Shown: positions 7,247-26,980 of the stretch, piece after piece
Layout of the letters: every line of letters begins with the position of its first letter
Numbering within the stretch: position 1 is the first letter of the stretch
DNA from: Candidatus Dojkabacteria bacterium UBA2022
Lineage (GTDB): Bacteria > Patescibacteriota > Dojkabacteria > SC72
Length of the DNA: 54,754 nucleotides
Direction: 5' to 3'
Assembly: GCA_002335495.1 (NCBI GenBank)
Contig: DDBW01000010.1
Span: 1-54,754, forward strand
Position numbers and translations under genes: made by a program
The notes under the pieces: model-generated
Told to the model about the DNA's origin: nothing
Databases searched by the model: none
Seen by the model: the letters and a program-made list of their open reading frames with translations, nothing else

Positions 7247-8413
7247 TTAAGCAGCGAGGGGAAGTGCTACAGCAGAGCTACCTGCCATATTCTTTTTGTT
7301 TGAATTACTTCCAGCATCAAACCCTCGTACTTTATCAATGATAGTCCATGTAAATGGTTGGTATCCGTAGGCATGATCCATGTAGGCTTGATTACCATCC
7401 TTAAGATCCCCGAAGGTTGTCATAGAGAAACCTTTACGTGCAAGATAGTCAACAAGAACCATCTGCGAAAAGTATGCGGAAGATTCATCCACTATATTTG
7501 CATAATAACCGTCACCGATCCAGGAGTCTTTATTCCTAGACGAAACGTACGAAGCGACATGAGCAACAACAGCAGGGAGCATAAACCATGGATTTACCCC
7601 TATTGCGAGCAATGTAGATGCAATTGTGACTCCGGATAGCATCATTCTCTGTAAGATAAACTTAACCCTTCTATTAATTAACTCAGGATTCTTAGCATGT
7701 ACATCCATATGAATTGCCTCGTGAGCAAGCGCACCTGCCGGAGTATTAATACCTTTAGTGCCTCCCGCATTAACCTTCCAGAAAGCTGCATCTCTAAGAT
7801 AGACATCCTTAGTATCAGTATTCGCAATTGTTAGTGGAGTAGCGGGATTTAATACGTATGCAAACCAGTGAGCTTTATGATAGTAAAGATCTCCAGACTT
7901 CATTAATGATGTAACATCAAAGGTGTTTCCACCCTGACCTCTTTGTAATATTTTAGGAATACTAACACCTTTGGCATTTGAACTTTTACCTTTAACATCA
8001 AAAACTACATCAACGGTGTCACCACCTAATACTTCGTAGTTAACTCTCAGATAACGACCATTAAATGAAGCCTTAAAATCTTTAGTATCAAAGGTCTTAA
8101 ACATTCCTTTAATATGTCTTTTAATCTCTGGATTTTCTGCAATAATCGCATTTTTGTCCATCCTGGAAATATCCTGAAGTTCAATATCAAACAAATCATC
8201 ACTATCTTCTAGTTTCTGCTCATTAAAATACTCTTTTGGTTCAAGCGCAGGTGTGATAACTCTTTCTGAGTATGTCTCAACAATATCATGGACAGGAGGA
8301 ATTGAATCTGAGACAAATTGTTGATCGATTCCTTTTGGTACGGCCCAATTCTTGCGAACATCTTCCCATCCCTGGGAAACAGCCATATTTGTAGTTTGCG
8401 AGGTATTAATCAT
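7247..8413 (-). CDS. HExxH protein with hydrophobic hairpin after the motif (putative membrane Zn-metalloprotease)
   Basis: LAHEAIHMDVH is followed by LSGVTIASTLLAIGV and FMLPAVVAHVASYV, then VDESSAY. This is the same layout as the 2374-3273 product. Confidence 0.5.
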   Translation of the reverse strand: MINTSQTTNMAVSQGWEDVRKNWAVPKGIDQQFVSDSIPPVHDIVETYSERVITPALEPKEYFNEQKLEDSDDLFDIELQDISRMDKNAIIAENPEIKRHIKGMFKTFDTKDFKASFNGRYLRVNYEVLGGDTVDVVFDVKGKSSNAKGVSIPKILQRGQGGNTFDVTSLMKSGDLYYHKAHWFAYVLNPATPLTIANTDTKDVYLRDAAFWKVNAGGTKGINTPAGALAHEAIHMDVHAKNPELINRRVKFILQRMMLSGVTIASTLLAIGVNPWFMLPAVVAHVASYVSSRNKDSWIGDGYYANIVDESSAYFSQMVLVDYLARKGFSMTTFGDLKDGNQAYMDHAYGYQPFTWTIIDKVRGFDAGSNSNKKNMAGSSAVALPLAA

Positions 8414-8538: not shown

Positions 8539-8880
8539 ATGGATTTACAACAATTAAACGAAGTGTTAAATCAGTTAGAAACCTACTTAGAATCAGCTTC
8601 AGAGGAGAGTATAAAGGAAGAGAATAAGGTATTTGTATACTCTGAAATTTCGAACTTAAGAGTTAATCCAACTCCTGAACACTTACAAACATTTATGGAA
8701 ACCTTAGGCCAGTACTTATACCTTCCTAAACAAGAAGTAATGAGCGAACCTCCAGTTATGGATCAGACACCTGCCGTGATGCCAGCAGTGACATCCCCAA
8801 CCGATGAAGACCAGAGGAAAATAGAGGAATTAGTTGCGAGTTTAAAGGCGTTGAGAAACACTTCTGAAGAGCCTGCATAA
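8539..8880 (+). CDS. Small acidic hypothetical protein (113 aa)
   Basis: E/D-rich ORF with no TM helix or signal peptide; first gene of the co-directional cluster. Confidence 0.55.
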   Translation: MDLQQLNEVLNQLETYLESASEESIKEENKVFVYSEISNLRVNPTPEHLQTFMETLGQYLYLPKQEVMSEPPVMDQTPAVMPAVTSPTDEDQRKIEELVASLKALRNTSEEPA

Positions 8881-8946
8881 GCAGATTGCACTTGAATATA
8901 AAGCTATGTATATTATTAATTGAATTAAATAAAAAAGAGAAGGTTT

Positions 8947-9426
8947 ATGAATAACTCTACAATATCTATTCTCGCTCAAGACTTGTTCAAGTTACTTGAT
9001 ATGGATGCCCTAGAAGCATCTGAAAAGGAGTTATTCCTAAGCGATTTCCTTAAAACGGTATCTAGATATTTCTTCCAAGAGAAGCTTGGAAAGGTTCTTT
9101 CCGCACAGGAGAAAGAGACACTAGCAACCAAATACGAATCATTGGACCAGGAAAACATATACGCACTGATGGAAGAGATGTCTAACAGAATTGAAAACGT
9201 AGAAGAGTTATATACGGAGGCGTTGGTATATGTAAAATCTCAGGTTGTTAAAGATTTCTATAAAGATAAAGTAGGTATGTTAGAGAAGTTGGTCGCAGAA
9301 GAGGAGGATGTAACAGTGAAGCAAAACCTCAGCTTTATGTTGAGCCTAGCCAAAAAGAAACTAGATTTTGCCTTGAATGAAAGGTACGATCAAATAATTA
9401 ACATATCTAATACAGAAGAAATATGA
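8947..9426 (+). CDS. Small acidic helical hypothetical protein (159 aa)
   Basis: Its stop overlaps the start of the giant gene (ATGA at 9423-9426). Confidence 0.6.
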   Translation: MNNSTISILAQDLFKLLDMDALEASEKELFLSDFLKTVSRYFFQEKLGKVLSAQEKETLATKYESLDQENIYALMEEMSNRIENVEELYTEALVYVKSQVVKDFYKDKVGMLEKLVAEEEDVTVKQNLSFMLSLAKKKLDFALNERYDQIINISNTEEI

Positions 9427-12400
9427 ACATGTCATCAGCACAGGGGGGGGAAAACAGTTCAGGAGTACCTTCATCATGGATACCTATAGAAGCCTTAAAT
9501 AATGCAGAGGCTGTTCAAAAATCACCTGGAGAGATGAGGGACTCTCTGCAAGCTTTAATGGATAAACTCGATAAGATCGGGGGTATGAACCCGACGGAAC
9601 TAGCTCAGAAATTCATCGGATTGCTGGATATGCTTGATAAAAATCAGGGTGAAAAACCTCCTGTAGAAATGCCACTCCTCGAAGAATCAAAAGATGTTAA
9701 GAAAGAAAATGGGAAGCTAGTAATTGAAGTCAAAGACCCAACCGTTACAGGGGAATTCGTAGGAAGCAATGGAAAATCCAAAGCGGAAGAGCTATTTATG
9801 GCTCTCACCAATAAGACAGAGGTAAAGACGGATCCAAAGCAAAATGCAACAAAACTAGATGTAGTTGCTGTTGTTCCTGTTGGCGGAAAGAATTCCAAAG
9901 TTGATATGGAGGTTGGCTTTAAACAAACTGCTAAAGGTCCTAAGGATGAAGGAGCTGGAACTGACGAGCTATCATTCGCTCCCCTGAATAAAGATGGCAA
10001 ACCTGATAACAGTAGAAGAATAGTGGTAAAGATTGAAAGAGGTCAAAATCCAAATGGTGTTCCCCAAACAAAAGTATTTCTTGAAATTGCACAACCAAAA
10101 GACCAATATAAACTCGGTGCTGACATTGGTGAGTTCGCCCAGAATGGTGAAGAGCTAGCAAATATTGAGAATGCCCTCCGAAGTCTAAGTGGTAAAAACG
10201 ACCCTTCATCTGAATTTATTAGAGGACAGATGATAGCCAGAAGAGATGCTATTCAACAAAGTATGGAGAAATCTGGAGTAAAAGAAGTAAAAGTAGATAA
10301 AGATAAGCAAACAAGAGAAGATTTAGCAAAAGTAGTCGGACTACTAAATGTCAAAAAAGGTGACATCCGATTATCACAAGATCCTGCAGCTCCACTTAAT
10401 GATGCCAATAAAGCTCAACTTAGTGCAATTGATGCTGTAAGGAAAGTTCTTGATATACCTGGTCAGCTTACAAATCCAAAGAGAAAACAGGAAAGTCGTG
10501 AAGCTGAAGCACCAGAAGCTGGATTATCAGACTTCTTGAGACAGTTACAGAAAGAACCTAACTTAAATGGGAACCCGCAACCAGCTAGAAACCCAGGAGA
10601 AGCAACCCCAGCAGCTCAACGGAAAACCGAGACAACAACCCAAGCAGAACCAGGAGTACAAACAGCTGAGGCAAAAGCCTTAAGAGAGAAGTCAAAAGAA
10701 GAATTGGTGGCAGAGTTTGATAAAGAGTTAGATGGTTTGAAGAAACTTAATGAAGAGAAGAGTAATCTTGAGACTAAGATTGCTGAACTCAAGAAGGCAG
10801 GAACTGAGGTACTATCAAAGGAAGACAAAGAAAAACTAACAGCACTTGAGAAAGAGCTAAAAGAAACTTCTGAAAAAATAGAAATCGTTAAAACCCTATC
10901 AGACCTAGGATTACTAAACTTCAAATCAGAAAAAGCAAGGACTCAGATAGGGACAGAAGTTATTAGCCCAGAAGACCTTGCTAACCTATCTCTAGCTAGA
11001 CTCTATGCACTTCTTGATGCTAATGCCACAGCACTTGCAAAGGAGATTGAGAAAGATAAAACAAAGGATCAGGCTAAAGTAGATAGACTTGCCAAGATAA
11101 AGTCTATAGCAGACTTTATGCTCAATACATCCAACGGCACTCATAAAAAATTCACAGATAAGGAATTCAAAGACCAGAAGGGTGTTGATGTTGTACTAGC
11201 ATGGTTGAATCAGTCACTAGAAAAGACAAACGACAACATAAAACCATTTAAGGATAAAGAAGCCGCAGGTAACGAGAAGGCAGCACTTAATGAGACTCAG
11301 ATTAAAGAACTTGAAGCCCAACTTGCAGAGGTAAACAAGAAGATCGCAGAATCAGAAACTAGAGCTCAGGCAATAATTGCCGCGCTAGCAGGTAAAATGG
11401 GAACAGAAGAGTGGCTACTACTAACTCAAAGACTTAACGATGCTCACGGAGGTAAATTTGAAGGGAAAGGGCCTGAAGTACCAGCTCAAGCAGAAGCCCA
11501 AGCTAATGCAGCTATCGCTGCAAATTGCCTACGAAAGATTGATCTAGACTTAGAACAGAGAGCGGAGCCAGAAACCTCAAAGGTAAAGAAATTCTTCAAG
11601 AGAGCCGCAGAGGTATTAACATCGGTATTCGGAGGTATCGCAGCAAGAACAGCCGTTAAAGCGATTGTAGTTGGTGCTCTAGGAATGACCCTCGGTGGAC
11701 CAGCAGGTCTTCTTGTAGGTGGTCTCGCAGGAGCTCTCGCAGGTGGAGCATCAAGCGCGATCTTCGGAACATGGATGCACTATAAAGTATTCCATAACGA
11801 TAAGATGCACGCTGTATATGCTGAAAATGCAAATCCAGGAAAAATGGATATCTTTAGGGGCAAGATCTATGAGAAAGCCAATGAAATATATGAGACACCA
11901 CAGAGAATTAAGAACATTGCCGCTGTATATAACAGTATTGTTTCAGGACAACTACAACCAAATCAACTAAACGATGAACAGAAGAAAGCTGTAATGGGAG
12001 TAGTTAAGGACTCAAGATTCATGAAATTAACAACCAACTACATTGGTGTTAACGGTCTAGGACTTGGAAACGACCTATTCAAAGCAGCCGATGGCAAAGG
12101 AATTGCTATCGAGGATGGATTAAGAGACTTTGCGACCAGATTTGATAACTTTGTAAATGCAGCTATTAATTCGAATCAGATCGCACAAGCAGATGTTGAA
12201 TCAACGCTTAAGAGTGCTGATGATGACGCTAAAGCTAAAGTTGATCAGGTAATTACCTCTGCATCATGGACTAAGTTCTTCAAGGGAGCTTTGATCGGTG
12301 GTGTATCAGGCTTCTTGGCGCAAGGAATCAGCAACGCACTCGAAGGACAAACCTTCTGGGGTGGTGAAGTTATAAATGCAGATTCAACAACAGCTGTAGC

Positions 12401-14690
12401 AGCAGATACAACTCTAACACCAGAACAGGTAACGGACTTAAATAAGGAAGTTGCTGAGATTGCTCAGAAGCATGGAGCTGAACAGGTACAGTTCCTTAAA
12501 GATACATACAACTTAACAGATGATCAGACTGCAGAGCTTCTTAAAGGATTCGATGCAAATGGAGATGGTATGTTTGCAGGTAACGAAATTGTTCAACTAC
12601 AAGCAAATCTTGATCAACAGTTTGGAATCGTAATTCCTAATGCAGAGGCCGCAACTACGATGACTGGCAATTGGGAAGCTCCATTCAATGGAACTCTCGG
12701 TAAAGAGCTACCAAGTGAATGGACTGAGACATGGACTAAAGGAATATACAGTGTAGGTAGAGGCCATAACTTCGCAGGAGCTGAGTTCAGTTTGAACGGA
12801 ACTCCAGGAGTTGGTGGAGACCACTATGCATTAGCAAAAGCTTTGCAGTATATGTCACATAATGTACCTGCAGAGAACATGAATACAGAGGAAGCCGGAA
12901 TAATGGTATCTCATCTATACGGAACTCTCCTTACGGAATCGGGTTCACAGATGAGTGATGCTCAGATTGCAGAATTTGCAGGAAGAGTAGCAGAGAGATA
13001 TGCAGGAACTGAATTTGATATGTCTGGATTATTTGTACCAGGAGGAGCTACTGAAACGATAACTACAACCGTAACTGAAGGAACTAGTGTAGACGGTCTC
13101 TTGATGCCTTGGTACGCAGCAGTGAACGAAACTCAATCATTGGTAAATACAATGATTGGTGAGAATGCACCAGGAGTAGCGGGTGGAGTAGCTAACAAAG
13201 TTGGTGACTTTATAGTTGAATCAACAAGAAAGGTGTCTGAACTTGGAACAACAGGTGCACTAGCAGGAATGGGTATTTCTATGTGGGCTGCTAATATGTA
13301 CACACCAGAGAATAGAGAGTTTGGACAGAGGACTGATGAACAGAAGAAAGATCAGGGAACTGGTGGCAATACAGGGCAGGGTGGAGCAACAACAGGTGGA
13401 CAGCAAACACCTCCAAATAATACAGGTACTCCTCAAGCACCAACAGGAGCAGGACAACAGACGACAGAGCAGGGAGGACCAAAACCAGCAGATAATAATC
13501 CAACAAATGGAGTACCAGGAGCAAGTCCAGTACAGCCAGTAGCAGCAACCGTAGGAGCAACTAACGCGAATCAAGTACCAGGTGGAGTAGGTATTAAACC
13601 TCTTACGTCACAAGGATATGAAATTTCGACGAATGTAACAACAGGTAGACTAATTGCACCATCACAAACATGGAGAGAGCAGTCCGGCCAACTTAGTGAA
13701 TTTGCACTAAACCACGGTAAGCTTAATGCGCTGAGAGTGGTGGGAGCTAAACTTGCCAGTGGTCTTTGGGAAGCTTCAACCGCATTGGTAAGAGGAAGGA
13801 ATCCATTCAAGAATCAATTAAATCAAGAGATTATTAATAGCGTAAAGGTTAATAACTCTCTAGCAGTCCTTGATACAAAGAACAATCAAGTTGTTGAAAG
13901 TAGGTTTAACGTAGCAGGTTTAAGAGCTGATGAAATGGAACAAGCCGTAGGTCAACAGATTATCAATATGAAAGAGGATATTCGAGGAATGCTTAAAGGA
14001 TATATCAAACAAGCTCTTAATATTGAATTCGGAAATGGAGCGAATACATTAACTGTTGCAGAAGGTAGGGATCAAGTACATCCTTCCGATAACGAAGCCC
14101 TTAAGCTCTTCTTAAGAGAGAACAAGGACACCAAGATTAATGATGAGATGGTGGACGCGTTCATGAACTTGATGATTATTCTTAACGACCCAAATAACTA
14201 TAATCAAAACGCAAGTAAATTAAATACTAAGGGTCAAGCAGAGTTTGAAGCAATTGCACAATTGATGCTTGATAGAGAGAAGCAGTGGTATGCAATACTT
14301 CCAGGTAAAGCAAGTGCAAAGATCAATACGGAGTATAGAGGAATGCCATTAGTAGTATCAGACGCAATAATCAGATCAGCTTTGGAGCTATCAGGATTCA
14401 AACTAACTGACGAGATGAGAAAATCCGCTCAGTACTTTACAAACATTGATCAAATGAGTCGAAGCGCTGGCTACTTAGATCCAAAGGGAGGATTCTTCAA
14501 CGCATTACAAGCAATAAGACACTCTCAAGAGATTAGGGGAGGAAGATTAGGAACTCCTGTAGCAAGAGTCGAGGGAACGCCAGTACAGCAGGTACAAGCC
14601 AATGAAACAGACCCAGTTCCTCCAACAATAAATCTAGTATGGGACGAAAGAGCTACCAAACCAACTGGCGCAAGGCGAGTTATAGTCTAG
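9423..14690 (+). CDS. Giant 1755-aa protein: coiled coils, Gly-zipper TM hairpin, EF-hand loop, Q/G/T/P low-complexity linker
   Basis: A single uninterrupted ORF. Heptad-like K/E-rich stretches fall at about 10680-10900 and 11280-11400. The hydrophobic hairpin IVVGALGMTLGGPAGLLVGGLAGALAGGASSAIFG lies at about 11600-11790. DANGDGMFAGNE (12552-12587) fits the EF-hand loop consensus. A low-complexity region spans about 13330-13590. There is no Sec signal. Confidence 0.85.
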   Translation: MNMSSAQGGENSSGVPSSWIPIEALNNAEAVQKSPGEMRDSLQALMDKLDKIGGMNPTELAQKFIGLLDMLDKNQGEKPPVEMPLLEESKDVKKENGKLVIEVKDPTVTGEFVGSNGKSKAEELFMALTNKTEVKTDPKQNATKLDVVAVVPVGGKNSKVDMEVGFKQTAKGPKDEGAGTDELSFAPLNKDGKPDNSRRIVVKIERGQNPNGVPQTKVFLEIAQPKDQYKLGADIGEFAQNGEELANIENALRSLSGKNDPSSEFIRGQMIARRDAIQQSMEKSGVKEVKVDKDKQTREDLAKVVGLLNVKKGDIRLSQDPAAPLNDANKAQLSAIDAVRKVLDIPGQLTNPKRKQESREAEAPEAGLSDFLRQLQKEPNLNGNPQPARNPGEATPAAQRKTETTTQAEPGVQTAEAKALREKSKEELVAEFDKELDGLKKLNEEKSNLETKIAELKKAGTEVLSKEDKEKLTALEKELKETSEKIEIVKTLSDLGLLNFKSEKARTQIGTEVISPEDLANLSLARLYALLDANATALAKEIEKDKTKDQAKVDRLAKIKSIADFMLNTSNGTHKKFTDKEFKDQKGVDVVLAWLNQSLEKTNDNIKPFKDKEAAGNEKAALNETQIKELEAQLAEVNKKIAESETRAQAIIAALAGKMGTEEWLLLTQRLNDAHGGKFEGKGPEVPAQAEAQANAAIAANCLRKIDLDLEQRAEPETSKVKKFFKRAAEVLTSVFGGIAARTAVKAIVVGALGMTLGGPAGLLVGGLAGALAGGASSAIFGTWMHYKVFHNDKMHAVYAENANPGKMDIFRGKIYEKANEIYETPQRIKNIAAVYNSIVSGQLQPNQLNDEQKKAVMGVVKDSRFMKLTTNYIGVNGLGLGNDLFKAADGKGIAIEDGLRDFATRFDNFVNAAINSNQIAQADVESTLKSADDDAKAKVDQVITSASWTKFFKGALIGGVSGFLAQGISNALEGQTFWGGEVINADSTTAVAADTTLTPEQVTDLNKEVAEIAQKHGAEQVQFLKDTYNLTDDQTAELLKGFDANGDGMFAGNEIVQLQANLDQQFGIVIPNAEAATTMTGNWEAPFNGTLGKELPSEWTETWTKGIYSVGRGHNFAGAEFSLNGTPGVGGDHYALAKALQYMSHNVPAENMNTEEAGIMVSHLYGTLLTESGSQMSDAQIAEFAGRVAERYAGTEFDMSGLFVPGGATETITTTVTEGTSVDGLLMPWYAAVNETQSLVNTMIGENAPGVAGGVANKVGDFIVESTRKVSELGTTGALAGMGISMWAANMYTPENREFGQRTDEQKKDQGTGGNTGQGGATTGGQQTPPNNTGTPQAPTGAGQQTTEQGGPKPADNNPTNGVPGASPVQPVAATVGATNANQVPGGVGIKPLTSQGYEISTNVTTGRLIAPSQTWREQSGQLSEFALNHGKLNALRVVGAKLASGLWEASTALVRGRNPFKNQLNQEIINSVKVNNSLAVLDTKNNQVVESRFNVAGLRADEMEQAVGQQIINMKEDIRGMLKGYIKQALNIEFGNGANTLTVAEGRDQVHPSDNEALKLFLRENKDTKINDEMVDAFMNLMIILNDPNNYNQNASKLNTKGQAEFEAIAQLMLDREKQWYAILPGKASAKINTEYRGMPLVVSDAIIRSALELSGFKLTDEMRKSAQYFTNIDQMSRSAGYLDPKGGFFNALQAIRHSQEIRGGRLGTPVARVEGTPVQQVQANETDPVPPTINLVWDERATKPTGARRVIV

Positions 14691-14724
14691 AGAGAAGTAA
14701 GAGTAGTAACAATACTGGGTAGTA

Positions 14725-14753
14725 TTGACCTAAATAACAACCTATAGTATAAT
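14725..14753 (+). promoter_or_regulatory. Near-consensus sigma70 promoter upstream of GC-rich ORF
   Basis: TTGACC (14725-14730), a 17-nt spacer, then TATAAT (14748-14753). Confidence 0.45.
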
Positions 14754-14803
14754 ACAACTAAGATATTTTGATATATCTTGGCTCTTTTAGAACCTCAGGT
14801 TTA

Positions 14804-14851
14804 GTATCATACTAACAACTTTGATTGCCCCCAGAATTGTTAGTATGATGC
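14804..14851 (+). promoter_or_regulatory. Long hairpin in the 5' leader of the GC-rich ORF
   Basis: ATCATACTAACAA (14806-14818) pairs with TTGTTAGTATGAT (14837-14849). Two more pairs extend the stem, and the loop is 18 nt. Confidence 0.45.
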
Positions 14852-14899
14852 CATTGGCATCTTTGTATCCACCCTTTCAATTTGACATAGGAGGTCAAA

Positions 14900-15358
14900 A
14901 TGGGTTTTTTCGATTTTCTCAAGAAGCAAGGTACGGAAAGTGCTACAGTTCGTGCAGCTCGCGCATCCGGAGGGAATGTAAGCGGTTACGTTGTATGCGT
15001 AAACCTCTTGGATGATGCACTCACGGCAGCGGCAGCAGCATCAGGAATTCGTTTCCGCCCTGGCGCAAGAGAGCGTATTCGTGCAGCTCTGCGTGCAGAG
15101 ATTTCCGCTGAAGGAACTGATCAGGTCGTGCTCAATCAGACCCTCAGAACCATCATGACGGAAATGTTTCAGCAGGGAAATCCTGTTCCTTCGATGCCAA
15201 GTGCTTTTACGCCCTCACCTGCCATTCCTCCCGGATACCAACTTGTCCCTTTGGCTACTCAAGTAGCAACTCCTCCCCCCCCCGCAATGGTATGGGAAGA
15301 AGAAACAAAGGAAGAACAAGGTCCGGAAAAGAAAAGCAAGAAAGCCAAGAAGGTGTAA
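14900..15358 (+). CDS. GC-rich hypothetical protein (152 aa), Ala/Pro-rich with Lys-rich tail
   Basis: A GGAGG Shine-Dalgarno sits 6 nt before the ATG. Codon usage is visibly GC-shifted compared with the neighbours. Confidence 0.6.
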   Translation: MGFFDFLKKQGTESATVRAARASGGNVSGYVVCVNLLDDALTAAAAASGIRFRPGARERIRAALRAEISAEGTDQVVLNQTLRTIMTEMFQQGNPVPSMPSAFTPSPAIPPGYQLVPLATQVATPPPPAMVWEEETKEEQGPEKKSKKAKKV

Positions 15359-15370
15359 TGCCACAACCTG

Positions 15371-15417
15371 AGGACCGGATGGTTGCAAAGATTTTATATC
15401 AGCAACCATTCGGTTCT
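15371..15417 (+). terminator. 16-bp stem hairpin after the GC-rich ORF
   Basis: 15371-15386 pairs with 15402-15417 (two G-U pairs), with a 15-nt loop. A moderately U-rich tail follows. Confidence 0.5.
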
Positions 15418-15480
15418 CTACTTGTTTACACAAGTAACCCTAAATGTTATCTTGTATAAGAAAGTTAAGAACCGAAATAA

Positions 15481-16737
15481 ATGAAGCCCACTAGAGAAAA
15501 GAATGCCCCTTCGTATCACGTAGATGTTCTTGGTTATAATGCAAACGTCGTAGAGGATGGACCAAGCATGACCAACAATAACTCAAGACCTTTAGGGGCA
15601 GGAGGAGAAGCAAAAGTTAAACACTACAGAGTGCATGATGAAGAAGGTGTCACACACGACAGGGCAATAAAGATTTTTCATCCACCATTCACGAGATTAG
15701 CTGAGAATAATCAACTAATCGAACTACAACCCAGTGATTTACCTCAAAACGAATTGGGAATCGAACTCAGTAAACCTGCCTATATTGTGGCATCTAATGC
15801 CCGATTTTGTGGCAATATTCATAATCCACAAAAGATAAAAAGTATAATCAATAGCAATGAAGATAAGTTACGAGATTTGGGAATCCAGGCATACCACCTT
15901 CGACAGCTACAAGAATCGTTTGGCAGCACTAGTGAAATAAATACACAGGGGTTTTTAAATTTTTTAAGATTTCGAGCGCAGCAAGTAGGAGACTTTGCGG
16001 CTTTGCAAAGGATTCCGCCAAGAATAGACATGCCAAAAGACTACGATCAGGGAATGATCCAAGCCATGAATAAAATGGCAAGATGGGCTAGCAAAAACTT
16101 TCCAAACCTAATGATTCCAAAACAACTTTTTCCGGAATTTTTACAGTTCGGAGTACTTGATGAAAGATATGGTGAAGATGCAGGAAAGTTTTATGTTGTG
16201 ATGGAGTATGTACCAGAGACCCTTACCTCGAAAATTGAGACCGGACTGTCAACAATTGAACGCTCAAATCTAAACGCAGGTGCAAGCATGGAAGACCCAT
16301 CAGGAATCGTAAGTGCAGTTACGCATATAATAAATTCTCAATTACCTATGCACAAACTTACTCAATTACAAACGGTAATTCAAATTATTCACTCTTTTGG
16401 ATTCGTATTCGGAGATTTAAAAAGAGGAAATATAGGATTCTTGAAGGATGGAAATATAACTCTACTTGATCCAAGTTCAATGATTAGGATTGGTACGATA
16501 CAGGATTTTGCTACAGAAGAATTTTTGCCAGAAGACCAACAAGCCCTAATGCGATTTGGACAACTCAGAGGAAAGCCGGACAATGACATTTACGCCTTAA
16601 ACCTGATTTTACAAAAGGTGAAACAAGATATGGCGAGAAGCTTACAATTGGGAATGGGATTTGATAAAGTTATAAAGGATGAGGATAAATCACACGAGAC
16701 AGCGACATTTAGAGCTAAACTTTTAAGAAACTTATAA
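15481..16737 (+). CDS. Atypical eukaryotic-like Ser/Thr protein kinase-fold protein
   Basis: G39-A-G41-G-E-A44-K-V46 (GxGxxGxV-like), A-I-K64, hinge-like VVMEYV, G-D312-L-K-R-G-N317 (DLKxxN), and D330-P-S exactly 18 residues after D312 at the DFG position. About 150 extra residues lie between K64 and the catalytic loop. Confidence 0.6.
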   Translation: MKPTREKNAPSYHVDVLGYNANVVEDGPSMTNNNSRPLGAGGEAKVKHYRVHDEEGVTHDRAIKIFHPPFTRLAENNQLIELQPSDLPQNELGIELSKPAYIVASNARFCGNIHNPQKIKSIINSNEDKLRDLGIQAYHLRQLQESFGSTSEINTQGFLNFLRFRAQQVGDFAALQRIPPRIDMPKDYDQGMIQAMNKMARWASKNFPNLMIPKQLFPEFLQFGVLDERYGEDAGKFYVVMEYVPETLTSKIETGLSTIERSNLNAGASMEDPSGIVSAVTHIINSQLPMHKLTQLQTVIQIIHSFGFVFGDLKRGNIGFLKDGNITLLDPSSMIRIGTIQDFATEEFLPEDQQALMRFGQLRGKPDNDIYALNLILQKVKQDMARSLQLGMGFDKVIKDEDKSHETATFRAKLLRNL

Positions 16738-16738
16738 C

Positions 16739-18664
16739 ATGGGACTCGGCCTTAAAATTGAAAACTTCTTCCTCTCTGGAGATGCAAGACTTGCACTGCA
16801 GAAAAGGGTGGATGCAAGTCCCGAACAAGATATTGATACTCTCTCAAAGTTCAATAAAGCAAAATCAGAAAAACTTCCATTGAAGGATACATTTGGGAAC
16901 CTTGAAATACCAGCATACGAAGTTACTACAAACATACCCAGTACAACAAAGGGAAAGCATCTGGGGATAATTCAAATACATCCAAATGGAGAAGAGGAGC
17001 TACCATACCAAAGCATAGGTTTTGATCCTGAACGTGATCCAACTCCTAGGGAAAAACTAAAAGGAGGGGGAGCGAAGGTAATAGATATCTCGATGAAAGG
17101 ATGTAGGATTATAGGTATAAACCGCCCAGCAATTGGAGCTCAACATCCAGTACAGGATGCAAGTGGAGTAACTTTCTATCGATCAAAGGGCGGAGACATA
17201 CATATTGGATTACATGTCTGCGATGGTAATACTGGTCTAGAGATTTCAGAAGATGAGCTAAGTCCATCACAAAAAGACAAGTATATTAAAACGAAAAGAT
17301 ACGATAAAACTTCTGTCAAAATTATTGGGGAGTCAGAGTATTACTCCACTCGAGGGGCACGAAACAGCTCGAGATCAATTCTAGAAGGGAGTGCAAATGC
17401 AGCTAGGTTTCTTGTTAATCACTTTGTAGAGGAGAGACAGGAAATGGGAATAGAAACTCCAAAGGGAGGTTCTACCTTACAGGCTACAAGGTTAGTAATC
17501 GGCAAAAAAAATATGTTAATAGATGCCACATGCCTTGGAGTAGACTCAAGGACAGCACCTAATGGAGTAGGAGACTTAGGTTATATGGCATTGGTAACAA
17601 AAGAAAAGGGGATAGAAATGATAGACATCCAGGGTAATTCGGAATTTGACTTATCCCATGACCCAGTCAGGTCAAGGTATGGTTTCGATATAATTCAACC
17701 TACTATTCAGACTGAGGTCAGTAAGGGAATATTTATAATAACAACCGATGGATTTAAACTGGATGATAACGGAATTAAAAAGCTTACTCAAGTAGTTAAT
17801 AACCCCGATTCCGCAGAAAGAGTTCGTCAATTACAAAATAAGGATCTACTTACAGAGATTTTTGGAGCAAGTTATGACGATGGAACATGTTGGATAGTAA
17901 TGTCAACTGAGAATAGTCCTAACGCTATTACTAGAAGACAAGAACGGGCTATGCAAGTGGAGACCACTAGCAGTGAAATCATTAAAAACTTAGATGCGAT
18001 AAAGGAACAAAGTAAGACATTTTTAAAAATAAACTATGCAGAGGTATCAACAGAAGTAGAAGAGTTTGAAAGATTACTTAGGGCGAAAACGAGCCCCTCT
18101 GATAAAATGCAAGGACTTCAAACTAGGTATGAACATATTTCAGGAACCCTCAAAGAGATGGTGGATCTTGAGCTAACTGTCGCCAGAATTGAGGCGCAGA
18201 TTAACCTTATACATGTAACTGATACGATAACAAATAACCTAACTAATTACCAAGTTGACGACCGCCTTGCCGGCTTTCTAAGACTACTTTATACTGATAA
18301 ACCTGGCAGTATACCTAAAAAAGTCTCCAACCCTAAGGATAGAGAAGTTTTAGCTAATATAATAAACGTTCTGGAAGTAAATAGTATAATTGAATTTAAA
18401 GGTAAATCAGGGAAGGAAATTCTGGAAAACTTTAGGAAAACAGGCGACAGTGACTCACTCAAACAGCTTATTGGTAGAATTAAAAACAGACCAAGCTCAG
18501 ACTCGATTGAGTTAGTAATACAAGCAACAAAAAATGGTGGTAAATCTAAAAAATCCATTACAGCAAGTCATAGAGAGACCTCAAAAGCATTATTTGATTC
18601 TGCAAGTAGCAAACTATCTGAACTTGAGAGGCAAATACAGGCGATGAGAGAGACTAAGATTTGA
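16739..18664 (+). CDS. PPM/PP2C-like phosphatase domain fused to C-terminal coiled-coil region
   Basis: In order: VQDAS; HVC-D162-GNTG (xxDGxGG); GGSTLQATRLVIG...CLGV-D269-SR (GTT...GDSR); IITT-D337-GF (SDGL); Y-D380-D381-GTCWIVM (DNiTvvv). The ATG lies 1 nt after the kinase stop. Confidence 0.5.
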   Translation: MGLGLKIENFFLSGDARLALQKRVDASPEQDIDTLSKFNKAKSEKLPLKDTFGNLEIPAYEVTTNIPSTTKGKHLGIIQIHPNGEEELPYQSIGFDPERDPTPREKLKGGGAKVIDISMKGCRIIGINRPAIGAQHPVQDASGVTFYRSKGGDIHIGLHVCDGNTGLEISEDELSPSQKDKYIKTKRYDKTSVKIIGESEYYSTRGARNSSRSILEGSANAARFLVNHFVEERQEMGIETPKGGSTLQATRLVIGKKNMLIDATCLGVDSRTAPNGVGDLGYMALVTKEKGIEMIDIQGNSEFDLSHDPVRSRYGFDIIQPTIQTEVSKGIFIITTDGFKLDDNGIKKLTQVVNNPDSAERVRQLQNKDLLTEIFGASYDDGTCWIVMSTENSPNAITRRQERAMQVETTSSEIIKNLDAIKEQSKTFLKINYAEVSTEVEEFERLLRAKTSPSDKMQGLQTRYEHISGTLKEMVDLELTVARIEAQINLIHVTDTITNNLTNYQVDDRLAGFLRLLYTDKPGSIPKKVSNPKDREVLANIINVLEVNSIIEFKGKSGKEILENFRKTGDSDSLKQLIGRIKNRPSSDSIELVIQATKNGGKSKKSITASHRETSKALFDSASSKLSELERQIQAMRETKI

Positions 18665-18841: not shown

Positions 18842-20164
18842 CTACTTCAACGGATGCTTCTCTTTATGCACTTCCTGTGCAAACCTATCCGATGCATGTA
18901 CGTATCTAGTAGTGGTATTCAAACTCTCGTGACCCAGTAGAACCTGAATAGCCGCAGGACTAGCTCCATTTTCAGCTAAATAAGTTGCAAAACCGTGCCT
19001 TAAACTATGCGCAGAAGTTGGAACAAGAATACCTAATCTTCTTCTATAATTTGCAATACACTCCTGAAAATAGTTCGTAGATAATCTCGCATTATCCTGT
19101 TTAGATCTACTTCCGCTGAAAGGAATAAACAGGGCAGGGGAGGAAAACCTATTTAAATACCCACTCTTCCTATACTCCTCAACCGCCCTCACATACTTCC
19201 ATCGATGATCCATACCACCAACCAAATCAATATTTAAACCCTGTTTTTCTTCTATTCCCCCAGATGTTTCACGAACCGTAGTAATATGATTCAACCTTAC
19301 CTCTAAGTATTTATCCAGCCAATCTATAGCCCTAGGCGTTAAATATACAAACCTTTCCTTTTTCCCTTTACCTTTAATAAACAGCTTACCATCCAAGTTA
19401 ATCTGATCCAAATTCAAGTTTATTAACTCTGAAATACGCATACCTGTAGAAAAAAGAAGCTCCATCATAGCTCTATTACGAATCCCAACCTCACGATCAT
19501 GCTCAAACTCTAATGGAGATTCAATTAACCTCACAAGATCTTCCAATTCAGCCACCTGAGACTTCTTACGATCAGCCTTAATCAGTTTAATAGCATCAGG
19601 CGGAATTGGAACTTCAATATCTCTGTCTATTAAAAATTTCAAGTAAGATCTCAAAGCACTCAACATACGATTTACACTACGAGCATCCAAACCATTCTCA
19701 GATCGACTCGATGCATTCTTAGGCTTCCCATATATTCCCAGTGACCCGAACACCTTGCGATACACGTCATCCAGGAACTTACCCTTAAACTCAGTACTTT
19801 CCAAACTTCCCCCAGGTGTTGTTACAGCCCCCTGAGTACTATCGTGCGTTCTAGACCCCTCAGAGCCCTTCGAGGTATCTTTTGTCGTACCTAAGCCGTT
19901 TTTCAAGTATCTAACCCTCAAATTATCCAAATCTGTCAGATGATCTCCATTCCTTAAGTACCCTTTATACAATGTAATGGTCTCTTTATCTATCTTCTCA
20001 AAATCCCGACCGTTAACATCTATAAAAACGGCAAAGATACTCAAGTCACGTGCATAGTTAAGTACAGTTTGCATACTGTAATTGTTATTCTGAAGCTCAA
20101 GCAAGAAGGAATCCTGAATAGGTAGTTTAGGAATAGCCTCGTTGACAGTTTTTTGATTAGACAT
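18842..20164 (-). CDS. Tyrosine recombinase (XerC/XerD-integrase family) with about 100-aa insertion after the N-terminal domain
   Basis: GMRISEL (Arg), HSLRHGFAT (H-x-x-R), LLGHESL and TRYVH (catalytic Tyr) are present. A Ser/Thr/Gly-rich insert spans aa 90-165. Confidence 0.85.
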   Translation of the reverse strand: MSNQKTVNEAIPKLPIQDSFLLELQNNNYSMQTVLNYARDLSIFAVFIDVNGRDFEKIDKETITLYKGYLRNGDHLTDLDNLRVRYLKNGLGTTKDTSKGSEGSRTHDSTQGAVTTPGGSLESTEFKGKFLDDVYRKVFGSLGIYGKPKNASSRSENGLDARSVNRMLSALRSYLKFLIDRDIEVPIPPDAIKLIKADRKKSQVAELEDLVRLIESPLEFEHDREVGIRNRAMMELLFSTGMRISELINLNLDQINLDGKLFIKGKGKKERFVYLTPRAIDWLDKYLEVRLNHITTVRETSGGIEEKQGLNIDLVGGMDHRWKYVRAVEEYRKSGYLNRFSSPALFIPFSGSRSKQDNARLSTNYFQECIANYRRRLGILVPTSAHSLRHGFATYLAENGASPAAIQVLLGHESLNTTTRYVHASDRFAQEVHKEKHPLK

Positions 20165-20305
20165 AGGAGTAGGGGGCTAAAATTTTAAATTCCCAGGTAT
20201 ATTGGAAAATATCCTTAATATATAAATAAAAAGAGGAGTATCTACTATCCAAATGTATTTCCATACTTAAATATACATTAATTTAGAATTAATAAAAATG
20301 GCTTT

Positions 20306-20589
20306 AATAGAGCACTCTTCCACTTTTAAACATACCTTACCGCATATAAGGGCGATTATACTCGGCAATATATTACATTAAATATAGATCCAATTCAAGA
20401 ATAGAGCACCCTCTCCTAATATGTATACAAATACTAATTAATACTGATAATTCTAAATCTACATTTATTTAATTACATAAAAATATATCGGAATAGCAAG
20501 AAATAGTGGAGTACTCCCCCAAAGGGTTATCCACATAAATTACTACAGGATATATTTACTATAGGATGATATTAGCACTCCCCCTCCCC
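20306..20589 (+). repeat. Four same-orientation copies of an A(A/T)TAG..AG(C/T)AC-pyrimidine-tract motif
   Basis: AATAGAGCACTCTTCC (20306-20321), AATAGAGCACCCTCTCC (20400-20416), AATAGTGGAGTACTCCCCC (20502-20520) and ATTAGCACTCCCCCTCCCC (20571-20589), all inside a 457-bp AT-rich spacer upstream of the recombinase. Confidence 0.5.
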
Positions 20590-20621
20590 TTTGCTTATCG
20601 TAACATGAAAATTTTGAATTC

Positions 20622-24475: not shown

Positions 24476-26980
24476 CTAGAGATTTCCCCCCGGAACAATT
24501 ATAGGAGATGTTACAACCTTATGCGAATCCCCCTTAGCGGATCCCTCTGTTACAGGAGCCTCTTTCGCAGACCTATTCCCCTTCTCACTATATTTCTGCT
24601 CACTCCATCTCTTAATCTTATCCTCAATAACTGATTGGTCAGCACTATATTTCTCACGGGAGGCAGCAATTATCTTCTCTTTATTTCCAAACTTCTGGAA
24701 TCTCGTATCCAGGGATTTAGCACTAAATGGCTTTGAAGTCATACCGTTAATACACAACTTCACATACATCGAATGAGCCTCTAAGGAAACCAAATCCTCT
24801 GCCGAGAAAATAGGCGCAAATTCATTAGCGAGAATGGAAGCATCAGACTGACTCACTACAAATGAGGCTAAAGTCCCAACATTACCGAAGATAGCCTGAC
24901 GAACAGTTAAAGGAATTTGATCTATATACTGGTTAGTCATTGTAAGGTTAAGTTTAAACTTTCTTGCTTCTGATAGAATTTTGGCAAAGGAGTCTGTAGC
25001 AAAGTTCTGAAACTCATCAACATAGAGGTAGAAGTCACGTCGCTGATCTATAGGAGTATCAACACGCTCCATCGCGGTTGACTGCAAACGAGTAATCAAC
25101 ATGCCTCCGAGTAACGCAGAGCTTTCCTCTCCTAACTTTCCTTGAGCTAGGTTGACCAGAAGAATCTTTCCAGAGTCCATAACATCCCTCAGGTTAAAGG
25201 ACGACTTAACCTGCCCGACAATATTTCTCATTACAGCAGAAGATATAAACCTACCAACCTTGTTTTGGATTGGGGCAACGGCTTCAGAAACCAACTTTGA
25301 GTTCTGAGACATCTGAGCAAACTCCTCTTCCCAGAATTTATACAAGATAGGGTCTTTAACCTGCTTAAGAATAAACTTTCGATAGTTCCGATCATTCAAC
25401 AATCGCATTACAGATAGGATTGTAGTTCCTTGCGCTTCAAGAGCGGTTGCAATCGTGTTGGTAAGAATATACTGCAATCTTGGTCCCCAAGAATCAAACT
25501 GCTTCTTGAACACCTCCACAACACCATCTGCAACGAGGTCTCGCTGTGATGAATCACTCATCTCCAGCAAATTGAAACCTATTGGATACCTTACATCCGC
25601 AGGATCGAAATATATAACATCATCAATACGCTCAGGAGGAATAAAATCCAATAGTTCATCAACCGCCTCCCCGTGAGGATCTATAAAACAGGCTCCGTGA
25701 CCAGCAAGAACATCAGCAACAAACATGTTTTTGAAAACTGTAGACTTACCTACTCCGGTTTTTCCGAGTAAATAGAAATGTCTTCTTCTATCATCCTTTT
25801 TAATTCCAAACTCAATCTTTTTACCACGGTAATCTGTATGAGCAAAAGCATTTACCCCAGGAGTACCAGCAAGGGGCAGATCCATAGGTGGCTCAGCCTT
25901 CCTCGCCCTACTCCACATTATATTAGGAGTTTCCACAGTTACATTTGGTAGGTGATAAACAGAAGCTAGTTCCTCAATATTCAAAATATCCTCAGGCTCA
26001 GACTCAAGCTTTCTTTTAAGGTAATCATTATAAATCTGTTGAGCAGGAACCGTTGGGGAGGAGTGAACAAAGCTATTTAAATGCGCGGTAGTGAACTGTT
26101 TGAAACTTGCAACTAAATCTCTGAGAATCTGCTCAGACCTAGTTTGATCCGGAGACTTAGAAATAATTCTAATTCCAACTTCAAAACCAAGCTTCAACAT
26201 CTTCAACTCAACCTGATTAAGCTCTTCCTGCTGTCCTGGAGCAAGCTTGACCACCTCTTTACCTCCACTCTTGCCATCAGTACTTGTTTGCATCGCCTTG
26301 GAAATTCCCTTAAAAATATTCACAAGCACCTCACCAATACTACCTGCAGAAGATTTCCCTTCTTTAACATCGGTAATATATTTTTTGGACTCTTCCTGCC
26401 AGTAGTTAGCAACTGGACGGAGATTAAATTGTATCCAAGCCTCTTCTCCAAGCTTTAAATCCGAGATTGCACTTGTTATAGCAGCTAGAGGATCTACATC
26501 AAAGTTTCTAAAGGTTTTAATTGGAAATATATAGCTCTTATCAAGTTCAATCACGCCCGTGCTTACAAAAGTCTGGGCATCTCTTGGAATCTGAGTATAA
26601 TCCTGCACATAACGGATCTCTGCATTTGGATACTGAGCATAGATCTGACCTTCTACAAACTCTGCTAAATGCCCAGGAACTACAGTATAGAAACGAATTC
26701 CCCCTTCTGCTCCCGATACAATTTCAAAGGAGACTAAATCCAAAGATTTCTTTGCGTCTCTCAAAATACCATGCAAGGAAGCAAACATCTGCTCTGCGGC
26801 CAAAGGAGTTTTATCGTTCTCTCTAGGGACAAGAATCTGGAGAATCTGAGGATTGCGAATCTCCTCAAAAACCTTCACCCCGTCAGGCTTCTTTGCAAAC
26901 GTAAATACAAACAGTACAAAGATGATCGAGATTATAAGTATAACTAATATTGCTCCTGCCATAGTGTTTAATAATATCAA
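24476..26980 (-). CDS. Membrane-anchored TraD/VirD4-like (FtsK/HerA superfamily) P-loop ATPase
   Basis: N-terminal TM helix, LLGKTGVGKST (Walker A) and FYLYVDEFQNF (Walker B), with a C-terminal FKLNLTMTNQY block typical of T4SS coupling-protein-like ATPases. Confidence 0.7.
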   Translation of the reverse strand: MILLNTMAGAILVILIISIIFVLFVFTFAKKPDGVKVFEEIRNPQILQILVPRENDKTPLAAEQMFASLHGILRDAKKSLDLVSFEIVSGAEGGIRFYTVVPGHLAEFVEGQIYAQYPNAEIRYVQDYTQIPRDAQTFVSTGVIELDKSYIFPIKTFRNFDVDPLAAITSAISDLKLGEEAWIQFNLRPVANYWQEESKKYITDVKEGKSSAGSIGEVLVNIFKGISKAMQTSTDGKSGGKEVVKLAPGQQEELNQVELKMLKLGFEVGIRIISKSPDQTRSEQILRDLVASFKQFTTAHLNSFVHSSPTVPAQQIYNDYLKRKLESEPEDILNIEELASVYHLPNVTVETPNIMWSRARKAEPPMDLPLAGTPGVNAFAHTDYRGKKIEFGIKKDDRRRHFYLLGKTGVGKSTVFKNMFVADVLAGHGACFIDPHGEAVDELLDFIPPERIDDVIYFDPADVRYPIGFNLLEMSDSSQRDLVADGVVEVFKKQFDSWGPRLQYILTNTIATALEAQGTTILSVMRLLNDRNYRKFILKQVKDPILYKFWEEEFAQMSQNSKLVSEAVAPIQNKVGRFISSAVMRNIVGQVKSSFNLRDVMDSGKILLVNLAQGKLGEESSALLGGMLITRLQSTAMERVDTPIDQRRDFYLYVDEFQNFATDSFAKILSEARKFKLNLTMTNQYIDQIPLTVRQAIFGNVGTLASFVVSQSDASILANEFAPIFSAEDLVSLEAHSMYVKLCINGMTSKPFSAKSLDTRFQKFGNKEKIIAASREKYSADQSVIEDKIKRWSEQKYSEKGNRSAKEAPVTEGSAKGDSHKVVTSPIIVPGGNL

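Follow-up and report, generated by a model that had tools for sequence, protein, structure and literature searches.

Candidatus Dojkabacteria bacterium UBA2022 carries, at positions 8,539 to 18,664 of contig DDBW01000010.1 (54,754 nt; this whole stretch is referred to here as the window, W), a gene for a divergent Hanks-type protein kinase that is directly followed by a gene for a protein with a predicted PPM/PP2C phosphatase fold. Both lie downstream of the genes for the small proteins p113, p159 and p152 and for a giant protein of 1755 amino acids (aa). The kinase and PPM families are novel, highly divergent representatives of known enzyme types. The giant and its small partners are orphans. 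We propose, with a probability of roughly 45%, that the locus encodes cytoplasmic kinase/phosphatase control of a membrane-anchored giant scaffold, that its genes are organized in separately promoted units, and that they form an accessory set specific for Dojkabacteria. The six same-strand open reading frames (ORFs) recognized in the preliminary description of this DNA are indeed there, as are the overlap of the p159 and giant genes and the minimal gap between the kinase and phosphatase genes. As orthologues of all six, arranged in the same order, are present in an independent genome (locus L015; L-numbers denote loci fetched from other genomes), these are not chance ORFs.

The assignment of the 418-aa protein as an atypical Ser/Thr-type kinase was confirmed by the family profile, the sequence motifs and the predicted structure, which show it to be a true, if divergent, protein kinase of the Hanks type in which the catalytic residues are intact. 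When 1.84 billion cluster representatives were searched exhaustively by HMMER, with the concatenated kinase and 641-aa protein as a query, 12 relatives of the kinase were found (E values from 1e-62 to 1e-4), i.e., a family of 13 cluster representatives including the W protein; a word-index homologue search (5.8 billion clusters) with kinase, 641-aa protein or giant as a query returned nothing but the query itself. In the 13-member alignment, G41 of the Gly-rich loop (LGAGGEAKV) and D312 of the catalytic loop (FGDLKRGN) are invariant, N317 of the latter is conserved in at least 90% of the members, and D369 is invariant or nearly so. The β3 Lys (K64 in AIK) is found in 11 of the 13 proteins and the Asp at the DFG position (D331 in LLDPS) in all of them, with a one-residue register shift in three; LPE stands in for APE. 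As HRD is replaced by FGD and DFG by DPS, the protein has to be regarded as a non-RD, atypical kinase. The family profile retrieved 246 distinct kinase sequences from the PDB at E ≤ 0.01, with PKA as the best one (1.5e-6), and the alignment with PKA spans the G-loop, VAIK, the hinge (VMEYVP), DLKxxN, the DFG position and the APE position. Single sequences give less: with the W kinase as a query, only weak matches to the catalytic loop were obtained in the PDB, the LanL kinase domain matched weakly in the same loop (E 2.6e-4), and the score against Pfam Pkinase (PF00069) was 14.1 bits (E 0.032), below the gathering cutoff of 31.7 bits. The best family member reaches 30.9 bits (E 2.4e-7) with this model, and four of the 13 members give sub-threshold matches. 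The AlphaFold2 (AF2) model (predicted local distance difference test score, pLDDT, 85.5; predicted TM-score, pTM, 0.83) matched 501 PDB chains at E ≤ 1e-3 in Foldseek, the top 50 all being protein kinases or LanKC kinase domains, with TM-scores on the target (TMt) of about 0.45-0.50 for the top matches. The N-lobe contains a helical insert of ~120 aa (roughly aa 89-215); no transmembrane (TM) segment or sensor domain is present in the 418-aa protein. Lys in DLKxxN is an established indicator of Ser/Thr specificity, and it is from this Lys only that the protein is predicted to be Ser/Thr-specific. Note that in two distant family members (P0017 and P0018), which keep the catalytic Asp, the β3 Lys is missing (VIGIG and VLALM at this place); these may be pseudokinases, or another Lys may take its role.

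The 641-aa protein had been described as PP2C-like, and its predicted fold and invariant motifs support a PPM/PP2C-fold protein with intact catalytic metal-binding motifs. The same search yielded seven relatives (E 3e-27 to 5e-5), i.e., a family of eight among the 1.84 billion cluster representatives. An N-terminal β-region with an invariant VTTN motif is followed by the PPM domain (~aa 110-390, nt 17066-17908) and by a C-terminal long-helix domain of ~230 aa (~aa 410-641). Invariant in the eight-member family are H136 and D140 (HPVQDA), D162-G163 (CDGNTG), G243/T246 (GGSTLQ), D337-G338 (TTDGF) and D380-D381 (YDDGT), with the family consensus motifs QDA, DGNT, GGSTAQ, TxDGF and DDGT. We take these residues to match, one to one, the PP2C motifs I (ED), II (DGHGG), V (GSTA), VIII (DG) and XI (DN), a correspondence judged from the placement of the motifs at strand ends rather than from a residue-by-residue superposition on a solved PPM structure. 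In the AF2 model built from the eight-sequence alignment, the core (aa 90-390) has pLDDT values of 80-94, and the motifs are located at strand ends (DSSP). The top 40+ Foldseek matches of this model in the PDB are all PPM phosphatases, e.g. the Stp1-type 6ihu (1e-6, TMt 0.62), PP2Cα (1a6q), PstP (2cm1), PPM1B, plant PP2Cs and the deAMPylase SidD. The Pfam models PP2C, PP2C_2 and SpoIIE matched none of nine members of the 641-aa family even at E ≤ 1, a search of PDB sequences with the family profile gave no PPM match, and in single-sequence PDB searches, neither the 641-aa protein nor the giant nor the HExxH membrane protein encoded next to the locus had a match. As no sequence profile detects the family, the PPM assignment comes from fold and motifs only. 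Another chemistry known for this fold, e.g. SidD-type deAMPylation, may apply to the 641-aa protein as well.

The two genes form a strictly conserved pair. The kinase gene is directly followed by a gene of the PPM family in W, L015/L016, L014, L017, L018, L020 and L021 (hmmsearch). L006 is a weaker case, with a 693-aa gene after the kinase whose product can be aligned colinearly with the 641-aa protein, all five motifs being retained, and a further kinase locus has a 599+-aa gene in the PPM position (the DNA of this locus was not read). The co-occurrence in the same order expected in the preliminary description was thus found as kinase-then-PPM in every locus examined, and as the full module in L015. 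The latter locus (on a 122-kb contig) comes from a distant relative of W, with 67% identity in RuvB, 61% in RuvC and 67% in Xer. Its gene order is GT2, HExxH, p113, p159, a 1742-aa giant, p152, kinase (35% identity to W) and PPM (28%), followed by an extra 534-aa gene and then by Xer-266-RuvBAC-YebC. The p113 orthologue (115 aa) is 36% identical (E 3e-19), that of p159 (153 aa) 44% (E 1e-38) and that of p152 (139 aa) 28% (E 9e-5), so that the proteins of the module are 24-44% identical, compared with 61-67% for the housekeeping neighbours. The extra 534-aa gene (L015 13210-14814) is absent from W, and its product has only a weak adenylate-kinase-like match (E 0.18).

The flanks are as described earlier, with a divergent gene for an HExxH membrane protein on one side and a convergent tyrosine recombinase gene on the other, but neither is quite what it had seemed. 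The HExxH gene is co-conserved with the module rather than being a mere neighbour, as judged from sequence: its orthologue in L015 (1846-3003; 385 aa, 24% identity, E 1e-17) retains the HExxH motif and a Glu downstream of it, and is encoded on the strand of the module, 65 bp upstream of the p113 orthologue. The gene is inverted in W with respect to L015, a single-gene inversion in an otherwise colinear module. The protein has a hydrophobic hairpin after its HEAIH motif and no Pfam or PDB match. The recombinase is a chromosomal Xer protein, because it keeps its place in a conserved RuvCAB-269aa-Xer synteny whatever lies downstream of it. Its candidacy as the integrase of a mobile element was rejected on the same grounds, this synteny being present in every Dojkabacteria locus fetched.

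The region had been read as one tightly packed ten-kb operon. Tight packing holds for two junctions: the TGA stop of p159 overlaps the ATG of the giant gene (ATGA at 9423-9426; 9419-9432 reads gaaatATGAacatg), and the kinase stop is separated from the PPM start by 1 nt (TAAcATG at 16735-16741). It does not hold for p152, which is set off by a 210-bp gap on the giant side and a 123-bp gap on the kinase side, both conserved as gaps and both with conserved signals. The predicted promoter at 14725-14753 has a counterpart at the same position in L015 (TTGACA-18-TATAAT, 12/12), and a 17-nt block across the -10 region (ACCTATAGTATAATACA) is identical in W and L015, which is striking against a protein identity of ~30% on either side. 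Similar promoters upstream of the small gene were found in L017 (TTGACA...CATAGTATAAT) and L006 (TTGACA-17-TATAAT), in both cases with a long leader after them; a promoter of this type is therefore conserved in at least four lineages (W, L015, L017 and L006). The p152 leader, which like the promoter is conserved in L015 at the DNA level and has a long hairpin, folds better than shuffled sequence (z = -3.5 in W and -3.4 in L015). A conserved GCTCTTTTA box in it pairs with the AGGAGG ribosome-binding site in minimum free energy (MFE) folds, and the leader may be a translational control element, judging from two to four sequences. Directly 3' of the p152 stop, the hairpin at 15370-15418 (MFE -39.8 kcal/mol, z = -6.2) has an equivalent in L015 (9897-9955, z = -6.2), which is followed by a U-run (UUUUGUGUUU). 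The conserved internal promoter and the post-p152 hairpin, both predictions, split the region into a giant unit, p152 and kinase-PPM, and this points to two or three transcription units rather than to one 10-kb operon. With a strong promoter before p152 and a terminator-like hairpin after its stop, p152 is probably made in excess of kinase and phosphatase.

The giant of W is 37% identical to that of L015 over 1722 aa, and this identity is distributed very unevenly. It is highest (87-90%) over aa 701-800, the most conserved part of the module; the near-identical core here (NCLRKIDLDLEQRAEPETSKVKKFFKRAAEVLTSVFGGIAARTAVKAIVVGALGMTLGGPAGLLVGGLAGALAGGASSAIFGTWMHYKVFHNDK) consists of a basic patch followed by a Gly-zipper hairpin of ~60 aa, and coincides with the only strongly hydrophobic stretch of the protein (~aa 735-781, Kyte-Doolittle peak). 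Identity is ~50% over aa 800-1000 and ~60% over aa 1100-1300, and only 25-35% in the 700 aa at the N-terminus and the 450 aa at the C-terminus. Coiled-coil-like sequence abounds in the first ~700 aa, and the protein has no signal peptide. Two weaker conserved Gly-rich hydrophobic segments are located at ~aa 946-975 (starting again with KFFKGA) and aa 1273-1295, the latter being followed by a G/T/Q/P-rich linker (~aa 1300-1400) and a C-terminal domain. The EF-hand-like loop listed in Table 1 is of a canonical-looking Ca2+-binding type, with sub-threshold Pfam EF-hand matches in both orthologues. L015/L016 is the sole other member of this giant family found: no Pfam, PDB, phage or plasmid match was obtained, and no relatives turned up when metagenome and viral contigs were scanned with the giant alignment. 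Four fragments of the W giant and of its L015 orthologue, compared with Pfam at E ≤ 10, yielded only sub-threshold Gly-zipper, EF-hand and coiled-coil noise, the best Gly-zipper match being C19orf12 (E 0.0013; 19 bits against a cutoff of 30). As there is no signal peptide and positive residues flank the hairpin, the simplest predicted topology is that of an inner-membrane hairpin anchor with the N-terminal coiled coils in the cytoplasm.

None of the six products has a hydrophobic, signal-peptide-like N-terminus. This agrees with the earlier statement that none of the products has a Sec signal. The acidity of the small proteins p113 and p159, also noted earlier, is evident from their composition (Table 1). 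Kinase, PPM protein and p152 are probably cytoplasmic, since they contain neither signal peptides nor TM or other hydrophobic segments. Scans of the six products and both flanks with Pfam, NCBIfam, PHROGs and PADLOC gave the recombinase alone as significant. The p159 protein is weakly similar to the 146-aa gene product encoded upstream of the giant in L003 (phmmer 1e-4; hhalign P 0.002). The p152 protein, whose gene heads the signalling cassette, starts with an MGFFDFLKK motif and has a helical middle part and a Pro/Ala-rich tail. Similar small genes (139-229 aa) precede the kinase wherever the contig allows this to be seen (L016, L017, L018 and L006). Their products resemble one another weakly, in a start of the MAGFF/MGFFDFLKK type, a helical middle part and a tail rich in Pro, Ala and Met.

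Table 1. Positions of the predicted genes and sequence features of the locus in W
Feature	Position	Strand	Description
HExxH protein	7247-8413	-	388 aa, HEAIH motif
p113	8539-8880	+	113 aa, acidic, D+E 21 vs K+R 8
p159	8947-9426	+	159 aa, acidic, D+E 31 vs K+R 19
giant	9423-14690	+	1755 aa, acidic, Cys-poor
basic stretch and Gly-zipper hairpin	11592-11783	+	giant aa 724-787, FFKRAAEVLTSVFGG...GGPAGLLVGGLAGALAGGASSAIFGTWMHY
EF-hand-like loop	12552-12587	+	giant D1044-E1055, DANGDGMFAGNE; in L015 DVNGNGILEGTE
p152 promoter (predicted)	14725-14753	+	sigma-70-type TTGACC-17-TATAAT, 11/12 consensus
p152 leader hairpin	14806-14849	+	18-bp arms, inside ~140-nt 5' leader
p152	14900-15358	+	152 aa, AGGAGG ribosome-binding site
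post-p152 hairpin	15370-15418	+	17-bp stem, terminator- or attenuator-like
kinase	15481-16737	+	418 aa, divergent Hanks-type (eukaryotic protein kinase, ePK, fold)
PPM protein	16739-18664	+	641 aa, predicted PPM/PP2C fold
tyrosine recombinase (Xer)	18842-20164	-	Pfam Phage_integrase 4e-33; NCBIfam XerD/XerC ~1e-53

Taken as a system, the locus, situated between cell-envelope genes and the conserved Xer-RuvBAC block, would consist of two units. The first one would comprise the HExxH membrane protein, p113, p159 and the giant. The giant would most likely be anchored in the cell's own cytoplasmic membrane by the Gly-zipper hairpin and the basic patch preceding it, with its large coiled-coil N-terminal part in the cytoplasm, and p159 and p113 would most likely be its stoichiometric partners or chaperone-like proteins. 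The second unit, with the order p152, kinase, phosphatase, would be a self-contained reversible-phosphorylation cassette, p152 contributing an amphipathic N-terminus and a Pro-rich tail. Kinase and phosphatase would then toggle the phosphorylation of cytoplasm-exposed parts of the giant and/or of p152, and the phosphorylation state would control the assembly or stability of the membrane-associated scaffold, by analogy with PrkC/PrpC and the HMW proteins of Mycoplasma pneumoniae.

In M. pneumoniae, PrkC and PrpC affect the phosphorylation of proteins of the attachment organelle (HMW cytadherence proteins), which are large, coiled-coil, acidic/Pro-rich and located at the membrane (PMC4923136). 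Likewise, the kinase and PPM genes of W have as neighbours those for a coiled-coil membrane protein of 1755 aa and for a small protein rich in Pro. However, there is no sequence relationship between the two systems, and no attachment organelle is known in Dojkabacteria. In Mycoplasma, clustering of this kind is not known for the kinase genes and those of the HMW proteins.

The enzymes themselves are best compared with the PrkC/PrpC, PknB/PstP and StkP/PhpP pairs, which like the W pair are encoded by adjacent, tightly coupled genes for an ePK-type kinase and a PP2C-fold phosphatase, and with which the W proteins share the G-loop, the VAIK Lys, DLKxxN, the Asp at the DFG position and the four acidic metal-binding motifs. 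The W kinase differs from the classical ones in having no TM, PASTA or sensor domain, in its ~120-aa helical insert and in FGD/DPS for HRD/DFG. The W phosphatase differs in being invisible to the Pfam PP2C and SpoIIE models and in having the N-terminal VTTN β-region and the helical tail of ~230 aa. Classical bacterial kinase/PPM pairs usually have the phosphatase gene first, whereas in W the kinase gene precedes that of the phosphatase. The W families are also tiny, with 13 (kinase) and eight (PPM) representatives in 1.84 billion.

Several points weigh against the proposed control of a giant scaffold. The giant and p152 are putative kinase substrates, proposed by analogy. The topology of the giant is predicted from a Kyte-Doolittle scan and the positive-inside rule alone, and the second and third of its hydrophobic segments are not strong enough for a call. 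The PPM model was built from eight sequences and has a whole-protein pLDDT of 67.6, with no detection by Pfam or PDB profiles, and the small proteins encoded upstream of the kinases are only weakly similar among each other. Promoters and terminators were called by consensus match and folding prediction, and read-through from the giant gene into p152-kinase-PPM is possible. Finally, the kinase/PPM cassette occurs in L014 and L020 without a visible giant (in L014, 2.5 kb upstream could be seen).

This last point leads to a serious alternative, which we regard as unlikely: the kinase/PPM pair would be a general cytoplasmic one (e.g., for envelope or division control), unrelated to the giants with which it shares a recombination-prone, variable site beside Xer. 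A conserved promoter of its own precedes the cassette; glycosyltransferase genes flank it in L014 and L020, and the lack of a visible giant there means that the association of cassette and giant in W could reflect shared residence in a variable region. In L003, L004 and L009, conversely, giants are present and no kinase/PPM genes were found in the 21-kb loci fetched. The claim that the locus is a self-contained module has to be given up in this respect, as the small-gene/kinase/PPM cassette exists without this giant family in L014 and L020 and together with unrelated large proteins in L021. Nevertheless, W and L015 agree in the order giant, small gene, kinase, PPM, Xer, in spite of a RuvB identity of only 67%, and L006 probably has this order, too. 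Furthermore, L021 again couples the cassette with a small and a large orphan gene beside Xer (kinase, PPM, 132 aa, 1124 aa, then Xer, the large protein being unrelated to the W giant), so that the cassette adjoins a large orphan protein and Xer in W, L015/L016, L021 and probably L006.

The variability of this site is considerable. The closest relatives of W by RuvB are L003, L004 and L008 (80-82%; the L008 contig ends inside Xer, and the downstream content is unseen there). Because closer relatives carry unrelated giants with small acidic partners at the position next to Xer, the locus has to be considered hypervariable. Downstream of Xer, L004/L009 encode proteins of 163/160 aa, 1783/1739 aa and 147/148 aa, the two giants being homologous to each other (2e-123), and L003 proteins of 146, 1171 and 526 aa; in L010 the corresponding proteins have 1518, 160 and 942 aa. 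The upstream and downstream small partners in L004/L009 look like distant paralogues (hhalign 5.6e-5); apart from this pair and that of p159 with the 146-aa protein of L003, no signal was obtained among the small partners. No large protein of the other loci is similar to the W giant by phmmer, and none of the hhalign comparisons of the W-type giant with the giants of L003 and L004/L009 and the 1518-aa protein of L010 was significant (best P 0.012, in the hairpin only); therefore, we claim only a shared architecture between the giant types, not homology. The largest of the Xer-site proteins (~1,500-1,800 aa) have a clearly acidic composition. The Xer-site proteins contain little or no Cys, and the N-termini inspected are not signal-peptide-like. 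Coiled-coil-like stretches are common in the L004/L009 and W-type giants. Gly-rich hydrophobic hairpins after basic residues are present in the L004 and L009 giants and were not seen in the L010 and L021 proteins. Altogether, the Xer-adjacent large proteins of L003, L004/L009, L010 and L021 differ from locus type to locus type without being related and range from 940 to 1,780 aa, with small acidic genes flanking them.

Another reading, which takes up the host-contact idea of the preliminary description, has the giant act outside the cell, as a host-contact protein or effector; we consider this doubtful. The giant would be exported by a non-Sec route and would insert its hairpin into the membrane of a partner cell or form a surface fibre, p113 and p159 would be secretion chaperones (class II-like), and kinase and phosphatase would gate the export or be co-delivered as effectors. 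The arrangement of the genes fits this: the giant gene is immediately preceded by small acidic genes (~150 aa), with translational coupling between them, and its product has both coiled coils and a hydrophobic hairpin. The succession of a small acidic gene, an acidic Gly-zipper giant of ~1,200-1,800 aa and another small acidic gene recurs with unrelated sequences in L003, L004 and L009, and a repeated layout with unrelated sequences fits arms-race diversification, as does the much faster evolution of the module proteins compared with their housekeeping neighbours. The fast-evolving parts of the giant, however, are the drift-prone coiled-coil and low-complexity termini, and its best-conserved parts are the hairpin and aa 1100-1300. 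The structural matches of the phosphatase include the PPM-fold effector SidD, but no signal peptide is present, p113 and p159 match no chaperone family, and no secretion apparatus was recognized in W apart from a conserved TrwB-like ATPase in housekeeping synteny. Dojkabacteria are not known to have an episymbiotic lifestyle, and a link of the module to host attachment is purely conjectural.

Two known kinds of systems can be compared here. In the gene pairs of the type III secretion system (T3SS; IpgC-IpaB, SycD-YopB) and in the case of chlamydial Inc proteins, a small acidic gene of ~150-160 aa precedes that of a protein with coiled coils and a hairpin, as in W. The analogy is architectural only: W contains neither T3SS genes (among the genes scanned) nor a TPR/chaperone match, and its giant is three to four times larger. 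A T3SS-like chaperone/translocator pair was accordingly dropped as a candidate, p113, p159 and the giant having no Pfam or NCBIfam match. Giant membrane proteins have been proposed as host-attachment factors in another Candidate Phyla Radiation (CPR) bacterium, Vampirococcus lugosii, whose reduced genome encodes membrane-predicted proteins of >1,400 aa with a proposed role in host recognition (PMC8080830). In contrast to these proteins, which carry WD40, PKD, integrin and fibronectin domains, the W giant has none of these domains and no signal peptide, and is linked to kinase/PPM genes.

A broader version of the idea, which we hold to be rather improbable, is that the diversifying Gly-zipper giants of the Xer site and their small acidic partners constitute an unrecognized apparatus for membrane insertion or cell contact that is switched by kinase and PPM protein in some lineages. 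If so, this could be e.g. a translocon-like device that is directed towards a host cell and does not depend on a known secretion system, with a kinase/PPM pair under structured-leader regulation.

It is very improbable that the giant is a pore-forming toxin or bacteriocin-like protein that permeabilizes membranes, with the HExxH protein as a processing protease or immunity protein and antitoxin-like small proteins. The Gly-zipper hairpin is under extreme conservation, class IIc bacteriocin and Gly-zipper models give sub-threshold matches, and the HExxH membrane protein is co-conserved. Indeed, the W hairpin (GGPAGLLVGGLAGALAGGASSAIFG) shares its GxxxG-rich character with C19orf12-like proteins, Gly-zipper_OmpA/YMGG and class IIc bacteriocins. 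However, the scores for all these families are far below threshold, the hairpin is embedded in a 1755-aa protein, and a leaderless coiled-coil protein of this size is unlike known bacteriocins. Moreover, neither an export ABC transporter nor a recognizable immunity gene was found, and PADLOC and PHROGs gave nothing in this direction. A known anti-phage defence system was rejected as well, as PADLOC gave only sub-threshold matches to the PD-T4-6 kinase domain (E 0.006-0.04).

That the locus is cargo of a mobile element or a prophage remnant, with a tape-measure-like giant in one version, is largely refuted and barely credible: the adjoining convergent tyrosine recombinase gene and the varying content of the site suggest it, but the recombinase is XerC/D-like (NCBIfam 7.6e-54) and in conserved chromosomal synteny, and the neighbours are VanY, GH26, GT2, RuvABC, YebC and LytR_C genes. 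No att-like flanking direct repeats and no tandem repeats were found at the locus, nor were there matches in viral contigs or in phage or plasmid records (for the latter two, by tblastn with aa 701-1300 of the giant). A prophage tail/head or tape-measure module was rejected, since the recombinase was the only PHROGs match and phage structural genes were absent. The preliminary description had named a missing neighbourhood conservation, missing kinase and PPM folds, or phage head/tail genes as findings that would speak against it; the neighbourhood is conserved, both folds are present in the models, and no phage head or tail genes were found.

Much of bacterial diversity belongs to the CPR, and the signalling of these bacteria, their, envelope and contact-site organization is almost unstudied. 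The divergent kinase and PPM families extend the known sequence space of both folds and are candidates for inclusion in family databases. The hypervariable pattern at the Xer site points to a fast-evolving, lineage-specific membrane structure, and, for an uncultured phylum, the locus offers candidate structural proteins under phospho-regulation that can be tested. Should the giant prove to act in host contact, CPR episymbiosis could be approached through this module.

The sequence of W is identical to JGI (Joint Genome Institute) metagenome contigs (3300006417), the longest contig carrying it being 341 kb. A scan of species-representative genomes with the recombinase led to metagenome-assembled genomes (MAGs) of Candidatus Dojkabacteria (WS6) and to MAGs labelled as uncultured Saccharibacteria (52-82% identity). 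The YebC-RuvC-RuvA-RuvB-269aa-Xer block is syntenic in all Dojkabacteria loci fetched and is usually preceded by a gene for a TrwB-like ATPase of 830 aa. The ATPase encoded in W (24476-26980; TrwB/VirD4-like, 834 aa, DUF8128 and TrwB_AAD_bind) is 83-85% identical in the closest relatives; being in fixed synteny with YebC-RuvCAB, its gene behaves as a housekeeping gene and not as a part of a conjugative element. Other neighbours in W are MFS, VanY, GH26, GT2, LytR_C and pseudouridine synthase genes. The Xer protein of W (440 aa) contains an insertion of ~80 aa between two SAM-like N-terminal matches (aa 18-73 and 153-181), and the insertion in the L010 protein is larger still (628-aa ORF). In the 457-bp gap upstream of xer (W 20165-20621), an imperfect 39-nt inverted repeat is present (20253-20291 and 20448-20486).

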